Shown: in pieces, positions 819-2,340 of the stretch | Layout: each line of letters begins with the position of its first letter | Numbering within the stretch: the first letter of the stretch is position 1 | Source: a virus | Taxonomy: Duplodnaviria > Heunggongvirae > Uroviricota > Caudoviricetes | Virus record (IMG/VR): IMGVR_UViG_2872180393_000006 | Span: 1 to 19,189 of that record | Reading direction: 5' to 3' (one strand) | Length of the DNA: 19,189 nt | Position numbers and translations under genes: made by a program | Notes under the pieces: model-generated | Database searches by the model: none | What the model was told of the DNA's origin: nothing | The model's input: only the letters and a program-made list of their open reading frames with translations

Positions 819-1900
819 ATGTATCCGGCACCCCGGACAGGGCGCAATATGACCCCGGTAATGAATGCTCTGAACATCCCGTAATGAAATATTGTGGGTA
901 TACTATATGCGTTCCGGTGGGAGTACAGGGAGCTGAAATCCCCACCGGTCCCAGTCGTGAGCCTCTGTATGACCGCCCCCTGACAAGTCTGATGACTTTA
1001 TCACCGTCAGCTTCTCCCTGGTACGCAGCAATAATCAGCCCGCCAATGTCAGGGTCTCCCCATCTGTTGCGGACAGAGCTCGCCACGATTCTGTAAATAA
1101 TATCTTCTGTGGTTATATTTATTTTCACCCAGCCAGTCAGTCTGGATATGGGCCAGTAGCAGTAGCGGGTGTGATAAATGGGGCCGTTAATGCCGTAAAA
1201 AGTAAGGGATTTGGCTCTGCGCCGCGGTTCCCTTGTCTCAGGGCGTGCATCAGTCCACCGGATGCTGAGCACCCCTTCAAACAGTGCGTCGGGTATGATG
1301 ATGTCGTAGGGGCAGCAACGGAATATTCACCTGGCAGCGCATTCCTTACCCAGGCCAGGAAATCATCCTTAGCGTCAAAACGGATAACATCTTCATACAG
1401 AAAAGCACGCCCAAAGCCGAATGCGCCGGGTATCGCCAGACGGCCTTTTGTCCGGTCGTAAATGTCGCTCTGTGCTTCCATCGTGGCCGCACTTTTCAGC
1501 CCCAGATTATCCCGGGACTTCTGTTGTGCCTTTTCGCCTGCTGCTGCGATTTCAGACAGATGGTTAGCCGTTTTCAGAGTGCCGGTCAGCGCAGCATCAA
1601 TGTCATTTTTGGCCTGTTCTGCTGCGCGGGCATAACCTGCGGCTGCCGCCACATCCTGCGCCGTCTGCTGTGCGTTTCCGGCTGCGCTCCCGGCACTCTG
1701 CTGCGCCTGCGCCACCATTTCCTCAAAGCGTTTGACGACATCCGGCTTCAGGTCGCCCTCATCAGGAGCAATCAGAAAGTCATTCAGCGTGCCGGGCTTT
1801 GAGTCGTCGTATACAGCAATGTCGCCAACACAGTACTCGTTGCGCCAGTCCTGTTTCAGATACACACCATATTTTCCAGTCCGCGCATGGAAACATACGA
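775..1900 (-). pseudogene. Side tail fibre gene remnant (lambda Stf-like N-terminal region), frame-disrupted and lacking its first ~60 codons
   Basis: ORF 1137..1865 contains VYDDSKPGTLNDFL...VKRFEEMVAQA, which matches the conserved lambda Stf N-terminal motif (VYEDSQPGTLNDFL) as recalled. It continues into a second frame (775..1272) with unusual composition, so at least one frameshift is present. Confidence 0.5.
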
Positions 1901-2340
1901 CAGGCTTTCAGCTTTTCTTTATCTTCGTCGCTGATTAACCCCAGCAGCAGGTCTTCTTCCCATTCCCCTGTCCGGGCACTGACCTGAGCCAGAAGGGCAT
2001 CACGCTCATCTTCCGCTTTAAGTCTGTAGTCAAAGACAAATTCATCATTGCGGTAAAACCAGTAACCCGGCGCGGTAATCCGTCGGTTAGCGGTAATATC
2101 CGGAACTTCGATAACGCTGGCATTGCGTGGCTCGATGCCTGTCACATCCTTACCGACCCACACCACGCGACCATCTCCGGTGTAAGCTATTTTTATTGTG
2201 TCGCTGGCGAAATTCTTCAGCTCTTCATACCAGTTTTTTCCGTCTTCTGAAAAAAGCCAGGTGACCGAATATCGTTTTGTCATCTGATATTGTTCTGCTG
2301 TTTTCGGATTACCCGCAGTAATATTTTTTAAATGCAACAT
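1780..2340 (-). CDS. Tail fibre assembly protein, P2 gpG / Mu U-like, with C-terminus replaced by out-of-frame Stf sequence
   Basis: N-terminus MLHLKNITAGNPKTAEQYQMTK...SEDGKNWYEE...VIEVPDITANRR matches the P2 gpG/Mu U signature as recalled. Family similarity ends near EDKEKLKA (~nt 1920); the remaining 40+ codons look non-native. Confidence 0.6.
   Translation of the reverse strand: MLHLKNITAGNPKTAEQYQMTKRYSVTWLFSEDGKNWYEELKNFASDTIKIAYTGDGRVVWVGKDVTGIEPRNASVIEVPDITANRRITAPGYWFYRNDEFVFDYRLKAEDERDALLAQVSARTGEWEEDLLLGLISDEDKEKLKACRMFPCADWKIWCVSETGLAQRVLCWRHCCIRRLKARHAE

Follow-up and report, generated by a model that had tools for sequence, protein, structure and literature searches.

A 271-bp deletion joins truncated tfa and stf genes in the tail-fibre cassette of a defective Shigella boydii prophage

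Described tail-fibre cassettes and the locus in the window

In the Stx2e phage phiP27 (NC_003356), genes L54-L57 form a tail-fibre cassette that consists of a fibre gene, a tfa gene of the Caudo_TAP family, a 23-bp spacer, a second fibre gene with a phage_tail_N domain (stf) and a DUF4376 gene. Searches of phage genomes by tblastn found the same tfa and stf pair (L55 and L56 in phiP27) in phage pPE4 as well, with order and 23-bp spacing unchanged, and the whole fibre–tfa–stf–DUF4376 arrangement is intact in phiP27, pPE4 and several E. coli prophages. Cassettes of the phiP27 type natively carry two fibre sets in tandem, a conserved feature already documented in phages of this type, and the tandem predates the deletion described below. 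The recorded host of pPE4 (L008, PP818812.1; vB_Apl-pPE4) is Actinobacillus pleuropneumoniae, and its cassette is of the E. coli type, with a Tfa 88% identical to the Tfa of E. coli VL46; this is surprising for a phage of the Pasteurellaceae and may reflect a mis-assigned host.

In Tfa proteins the N-terminal fibre-binding domain is variable, and the C-terminal helical domain, which mediates trimerisation and assembly, is conserved, according to PMC9608196, citing North et al. 2019. The sitABCD island, or 'PAI sit', is found in Shigella and E. coli with variable size and orientation and at several chromosomal sites (PMC7545054).

The stretch of DNA analysed here, referred to as the window (19,189 nt, IMG/VR record IMGVR_UViG_2872180393_000006), starts just after sitD in matching genomes. 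Its first part carries a cassette with the gene order of the phiP27 type on one strand, in which the two middle genes are incomplete and the 23-bp spacer is missing. The features of the cassette and of the adjoining baseplate genes are as follows.

201..818, minus strand: DUF4376 gene, counterpart of phiP27 L57 and last of the cassette, apparently intact (Pfam DUF4376; PHROG 1141 'tail fiber protein')
775..1895, minus strand: stf remnant, retaining codons 50-422 of the 422 in a fibre gene whose N-terminal domain is of the lambda-Stf type (Pfam, gap position)
775-1272, minus strand: 165-aa ORF in another frame, continuing stf (ORF list)
1137-1865, minus strand: 242-aa ORF with the phage_tail_N domain (Pfam)
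1780-2340, minus strand: 186-aa ORF with the Caudo_TAP (Tfa) domain (ORF list, Pfam)
1780..1895, minus strand: out-of-frame tail of the 186-aa ORF, 38 codons and a stop (ORF list, alignment)
1895..1896, no strand: deletion scar (blastn and base-by-base comparison with the VL46 locus)
1896..2340, minus strand: tfa remnant, codons 1-148 of a 181-codon assembly gene of the Mu U/P2 G type (Pfam Caudo_TAP, Mu U, protein alignment)
2343..3581, minus strand: C-terminal ~355 codons of the first, myovirus-type fibre gene, collinear with VL46 locus L001 8615-9685 except for a divergent patch (Pfam Gp34_trimer; PHROG tail-fibre families)
2343-3545, minus strand: 400-aa ORF, remainder of the first fibre gene (ORF list)
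5028..5190, minus strand: first ~54 codons of the first fibre gene, upstream of an insertion sequence (ORF 4981-5190 starts like the intact 410-aa VL46 fibre)
5177..5782, minus strand: DUF2612 baseplate-wedge gene (Pfam DUF2612)
5784-7021, minus strand: frameshifted baseplate J gene, upstream of the DUF2612 gene (4-nt gap)

The likeness to phiP27 extends to 74% protein identity for tfa, 40% over the full length for the stf homologue and 88-98% DNA identity in the block formed by the tfa 3' end, the spacer and the stf 5' end. The window differs from phiP27 in lacking 271 bp at the tfa/stf boundary, in having an insertion sequence in the first fibre gene and in its baseplate genes, which are DUF2612 and baseplate J where L49-L53 of phiP27 are of another type. 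The tfa gene directly follows the fibre gene, as U follows S in Mu and G follows H in P2; its start at 2340 lies 2 nt past the fibre stop at 2343, a layout also seen in VL46 and phiP27. Residues 1-148 of the product are homologous to Mu U, whereas the last 33 residues of a protein of the Mu U/P2 G type are missing and 38 unrelated residues stand in their place. The second fibre resembles lambda Stf in the N-terminal domain only, the remainder being unrelated; unlike in lambda, the partner of stf is the DUF4376 gene and not a lambda-type Tfa, the host backbone is contractile-tailed, and the first 49 residues are deleted in the window. The DUF4376 gene shares 97% identity with its VL46 counterpart and, from its position, would have a putative chaperone or tip role.

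Intact relatives were found by megablast against complete E. coli genomes, which identified ten E. coli prophages collinear with window positions 1-3581. In E. coli VL46 (locus L001, next to sitD), the fibre (410 aa), tfa (181 aa), stf (422 aa) and DUF4376 (207 aa) genes are all complete, and the stf product is annotated as 'prophage tail fiber N-terminal domain-containing protein'. The cassette occupies three E. coli chromosomal sites, at sitD (L001), pphA/yebW (L002) and ipaH (L009 and L010), and the baseplate modules upstream of it vary among the elements. In L009 (E. coli FDAARGOS_943) and L010 (O121 201805972), both from EIEC-type genomes, tfa-stf-DUF4376 adjoins ipaH effector genes. In some genomes the tfa/stf boundary is matched at as many as 7 places.

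Within the C-terminal part of the first fibre gene, a stretch of about 200 bp (window 2621-2817) had no blastn match in the sit-island prophage of VL46 and was 96% identical to the ipaH-island copies L009 and L010. This sequence pattern would fit mosaicism on a fine scale, or gene conversion, between paralogous prophages.

The tfa–stf junction

The first-pass annotation had placed a junction between a tfa and an stf gene within positions 1880-1930. Comparison with the VL46 locus located the breakpoint at 1895/1896, where, on the minus strand, tfa codon 148 (of 181) abuts stf codon 50 in another frame. Window positions 1-1895 were collinear with L001 6001-7896 (97.3% identity by blastn) and positions 1895-2621 with L001 8167-8893 (92.6% identity by blastn). 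Exactly 271 bp were missing relative to L001, the segment 7897-8167 (in relatives, the region labelled window 1896-1625), which is made up of 101 nt from the 3' end of tfa, the 23-bp spacer and 147 nt from the 5' end of stf. The same 271-bp difference was found against the EIEC-type loci L009 and L010, the flanks of which are 100% identical to the window. No single continuous known gene covers both 1780..2340 and 1137..1900, and the breakpoint stands.

On the tfa side, the 186-aa ORF matched Pfam Caudo_TAP (PF02413) over profile positions 2-108 of 131 (62.4 bits, cut-off 22.1, E=6e-17), and the intact homologue covers positions 2-131 of 131. Residues 1-150 matched chain residues 1-156 of 175 of Mu protein U (PDB 5yvq; E=1.5e-36). 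Protein alignment with five intact homologues showed that identity stops at ...EDKEKLKACR, residue 148 of 181, in accordance with the first-pass reading that Tfa similarity ends about 30 residues early near EDKEKLKA. The gene has lost its 33 terminal codons together with its stop, and the final 38 residues of the ORF, unrelated to any of the five homologues, are stf sequence read in the wrong frame. The ORF product is therefore a Caudo_TAP family match that lacks the complete protein with its conserved C-terminal domain; the 33 lost residues fall in the C-terminal region that PMC9608196 describes as the helical oligomerisation domain of Tfa.

In RefSeq, the 186-aa product (WP_315698304.1, S. 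boydii) goes by the name 'tail fiber assembly protein', like an intact protein. It is a truncated chimera, for which a pseudogene flag would be better.

On the stf side, the ORF matched Pfam phage_tail_N (PF08400) over profile positions 61-132 of 134 (117 bits, cut-off 26.6), where intact stf covers positions 1-131 of 134. About half of the Stf tail-attachment domain is removed by the deletion, and the stf frame is left without its start codon, its ribosome-binding site and its first 49 codons, so that the match to the family comes without a complete N-terminal domain having its own start codon. Read from window position 1895, stf aligned with a Stf N-terminal chain of the lambda type (PDB 9e7m), starting at residue 54 of that chain. 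In the intact relative, homology to chain Ta of the same entry spans the N-terminal ~92-131 residues (E=2.4e-16); this chain was deposited as 'Tail fiber protein', and we take it to be the N-terminus of lambda Stf, by which the fibre is attached to the tail. In tblastn searches the intact relative shared 47% identity with side tail fibres of the lambda type over residues 1-110; the tblastn matches stop there, and past the N-terminal domain no similarity to lambda Stf was found. The E-values of the tfa and stf homologies (1e-17 to 1e-36) are far past chance.

Two details of the first reading of the junction had to be revised. A gap of about 20 bp had been proposed before the Stf-like sequence, which was thought to begin near residue 60; the two homologies in fact abut, with a single base (A at 1895) common to both alignments, and Stf homology runs from codon 50, codon 60 being the first GTG (at 1865) in the frame of the remnant. 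The fusion itself is out of frame, as had been proposed, the tfa and stf frames differing by one base.

The microhomology that the first-pass annotation had suggested looking for at the junction amounted to that one shared base, and no k-mer of at least 5 nt was common to the deletion end points at matching offsets. Neither flanking repeats nor the end of an insertion sequence were found at the scar. A promoter and terminator scan of window positions 1-3800 gave counts at or below the shuffled expectation and nothing at the junction, and Rfam and tRNA scans gave no match near it.

The junction is very probably the scar of one 271-bp deletion that took place in an S. boydii lineage, within an already complete four-gene fibre cassette of a defective contractile-tail prophage beside sitABCD. 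The direction of the change is given by the intact genes: because these cover the full Pfam profiles, the difference is a loss in the lineage of the window and not an insertion elsewhere. The ancestral intact state was reconstructed from E. coli, EIEC and S. flexneri relatives, 93-100% identical to the window in the flanks, and would have had the order fibre gene, Mu U-type tfa, 23-bp spacer, stf with its lambda-type N-terminal anchor domain, and DUF4376 gene. The deletion took away the 3' end of tfa, the spacer with the stf ribosome-binding site and the first 49 stf codons; translation of tfa now continues through 38 wrong-frame codons, and stf is left without a proper start. Since tfa runs on in this way and stf has no proper start, both are most probably non-functional pseudogenes, judging from their sequences. 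The ends share one base, with no flanking repeats and no insertion sequence end at the scar, and for this reason we infer illegitimate, non-homologous joining, which could have arisen, for example, from an error of replication or break repair.

Occurrence of the junction and conservation of the deleted block

The scar is marked by the 26-mer CGCGCATGGAAACATACGACAGGCTT. The exact junction was found in four S. boydii assemblies, of which two are complete chromosomes and two are draft contigs, and in nothing else that was searched. Window positions 1-8340 are 100% identical to S. boydii CP026846.1; the junction is also present in CP119446.1, DAYJOX010000111.1 and LPTQ01000247.1, which are 98.8-99.6% identical to the window elsewhere. 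The 186-aa chimera, recorded from S. boydii, is encoded by five contigs.

A megablast search of 5,426 complete E. coli genomes with a 120-nt probe found the junction in none; ten have both halves 271 bp apart. The unbroken 391-bp stretch of tfa 3' end, spacer and stf 5' end is present in 122 of these 5,426 genomes at 87-100% identity. The junction was likewise absent as an exact 37-mer from the GTDB species representatives and as the exact 26-mer from IMG/VR and JGI metagenome contigs. S. flexneri Tfa proteins of the same 90% cluster retain the normal C-terminus, and the parts of the PAI sit literature covered (PMC7545054) hold no mention of this deletion. The scar is a genuine deletion limited to one S. 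boydii lineage.

The cassettes of VL46 (L001), the pphA/yebW prophage (L002), phiP27 and pPE4 were aligned and the mean identity was calculated per 50-nt bin; blastn segments gave the same picture. The values along the cassette were as follows.

First fibre gene, as far as ~250-300 nt from its 3' end: about 38-62% identity
Last ~250-300 nt of that gene: 57-84%
tfa, over most of its length: 73-88%
Block between tfa nt ~446 and stf nt ~135: 88-99%, with 92-99% in the part that reaches to stf nt ~80
Stf N-terminal domain downstream of that block: 75-87%
stf downstream of nt ~380: about 23-51%

The real mosaic boundaries lie in the first fibre gene, ~250-300 nt short of its end, and in stf, ~380 nt from its start. 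The 271 deleted bases coincide closely with the best-conserved block of the cassette, at 92-99% identity against 73-88% in the adjoining parts of tfa and stf, and because of this the scar is not itself a mosaic boundary. Contiguous relatives span the junction with no change in similarity across the scar: the identity of the window to L001, L009 and L010 was alike on both sides, and the nearest relatives remained the same.

A purely random event would not predict a deletion that matches the most conserved block, and the overlap, which was noticed after the fact, may be due to chance. The block keeps 92-99% identity in cassettes that are otherwise 50-88% identical and that sit in differing contractile-tail backbones. 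It might be a dedicated linker for the exchange of either fibre set among phiP27-type phages, the S. boydii deletion being a by-product of aberrant recombination there and not a random loss; we regard this as unlikely.

The first-pass annotation had read the junction as the footprint of a host-range exchange, in which fibre modules of different ancestry, one of the myovirus H-G type and one of the lambda stf-tfa type, were joined by illegitimate recombination or deletion. The two halves do belong to families first known in different types of phage, with tfa 45% identical to Mu U/U' and stf, over its first ~110 residues, 47% identical to side tail fibres of the lambda type, and the conserved tfa-3'/stf-5' block could in principle be a homologous linker in intact phages. 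However, both genes are complete and adjacent, with 23-bp spacing, in phiP27, pPE4 and many prophages, and for that reason the modules must have been linked before the deletion; in addition, the deleted part is the best conserved and no similarity boundary, and the same nearest relatives are found on either side of the scar. An exchange at this point is thus very improbable. What remains of the original proposal is the deletion fusion of a truncated tfa with a truncated stf, which holds, but not the different origin of the modules, which stand in intact tandem in phiP27, pPE4 and E. coli. Similarly, two fibre genes and two putative accessory genes are present, near to the two fibre and two chaperone genes that had been described in tandem, but their order was not created here.

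Two other rearrangements were considered and rejected. An invertible host-range segment of the Mu G, P1 C or e14 P type would need features that the window does not show: no serine invertase was found among the ORFs scanned, inverted repeats were imperfect and no longer than 18 nt, and the two fibre sets share one strand. The window differs in this from Mu, having neither an invertase gene nor long inverted repeats. Unequal recombination between paralogous prophage copies was discarded on the ground that the window keeps one and the same nearest relative on either side of the junction.

Decay of the surrounding prophage

Shigella is a genus well known for genome decay, and the prophage in the window carries other lesions besides the scar. 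Five insertion sequence copies were found in the window.

3582..5027, plus strand: IS110-family element of ~1.45 kb that interrupts the first fibre gene (NCBIfam transpos_IS110; insertion point by blastn against L001)
9251-10706, inverted relative to 3582-5027: second IS110-family copy, 99.9% identical to the first
7832-9095, 11541-12806 and 16730-17993: IS3-family copies of 1,264 bp, 99.5-99.7% identical to each other

Both IS110-family copies have the same 2-nt loss, which breaks the transposase; the gene is intact, with 398 aa, in S. boydii CP119446.1 (L003). The IS3-family copy at 7832 truncates the prophage spike gene. Matches of the window to many Stx phage records are accounted for by this IS3-family element.

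The baseplate J gene is split into ORFs of 260 aa and 150 aa by a 4-nt deletion near 6614, which is shared by CP119446.1 and absent from E. coli VL46. The window has no head, sheath or tube genes. The contractile-tail prophage beside sitABCD is dead, and because it could no longer make virions the 271-bp deletion was probably neutral.

The cassette has been damaged elsewhere too. In E. coli E400634 (L011 3391-3725, next to ydfJ at the Qin locus), a separate deletion in the same cassette runs from 41 nt into stf to the inside of the DUF4376 gene: similarity breaks off after 41 nt of stf and picks up again within a DUF4376 pseudogene of 120 nt. We rejected this locus as a candidate for a natural module swap, as it represents another decay deletion that ends in the DUF4376 pseudogene. 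The E400634 deletion is independent of the one in S. boydii, and decay of the cassette is therefore recurrent.

Positions 15341-15529 on the plus strand of the window matched two Rfam families, isrK (15341-15417) and C4 antisense RNA (15442-15529). ORF 15290-16135 contains both in its 5' part, and its match to the Rha regulatory-protein family starts downstream of the two. The prophage remnant thus seems to hold an immunity module of the P1/P7 type.

Loss of function of the fused genes could be questioned if the chimeric 186-aa ORF, or a truncated Stf restarted at the GTG at 1865, were expressed with some use, or if the loss of the fibre had been selected. The 186-aa ORF is intact and annotated as a 'tail fiber assembly protein' (WP_315698304.1), and the stf frame is open from codon 50 to the stop in the S. 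boydii loci L003 and L005. These points are outweighed by the nature of the 38 added residues, which are wrong-frame stf, and by the state of the prophage, in which the cognate fibre is split by an insertion sequence and the remaining virion genes are gone; moreover, no promoter-like site lies near the junction and there is no hint of selection. We consider such a use or advantage very improbable, and prefer to see in both genes remnants left by a 271-bp deletion.

The base accuracy of the present assembly is imperfect. In the window, a 1-nt loss in a G run near 1312 divides the stf frame into ORFs 1137-1865 and 775-1272; it is absent from S. boydii L003 and L005, where stf is open from codon 50 to the stop. 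This loss and two others in homopolymer runs, at ~3647 and ~7243 (both C runs), are confined to this assembly (CP026846.1) and do not occur in the other S. boydii assemblies; they may be sequencing errors. Although these losses near 1312, 3647 and 7243 might raise the suspicion that the junction is itself an assembly or sequencing artefact of one genome, this is very improbable, as four separate S. boydii assemblies that differ elsewhere (98.8-99.6% identity) all carry the identical junction and a clean 271-bp loss is atypical of homopolymer error.

The mark of host-range module exchange that had been seen in the junction is not borne out by the contiguous relatives, the conserved block and the unchanged nearest relatives on both sides. 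The finding is an ordinary gene-decay deletion in an IS-ridden, defective prophage of Shigella. As one more pseudogene-forming deletion it matters little in itself, and the scar is usable as a clean strain-typing marker for one S. boydii lineage.
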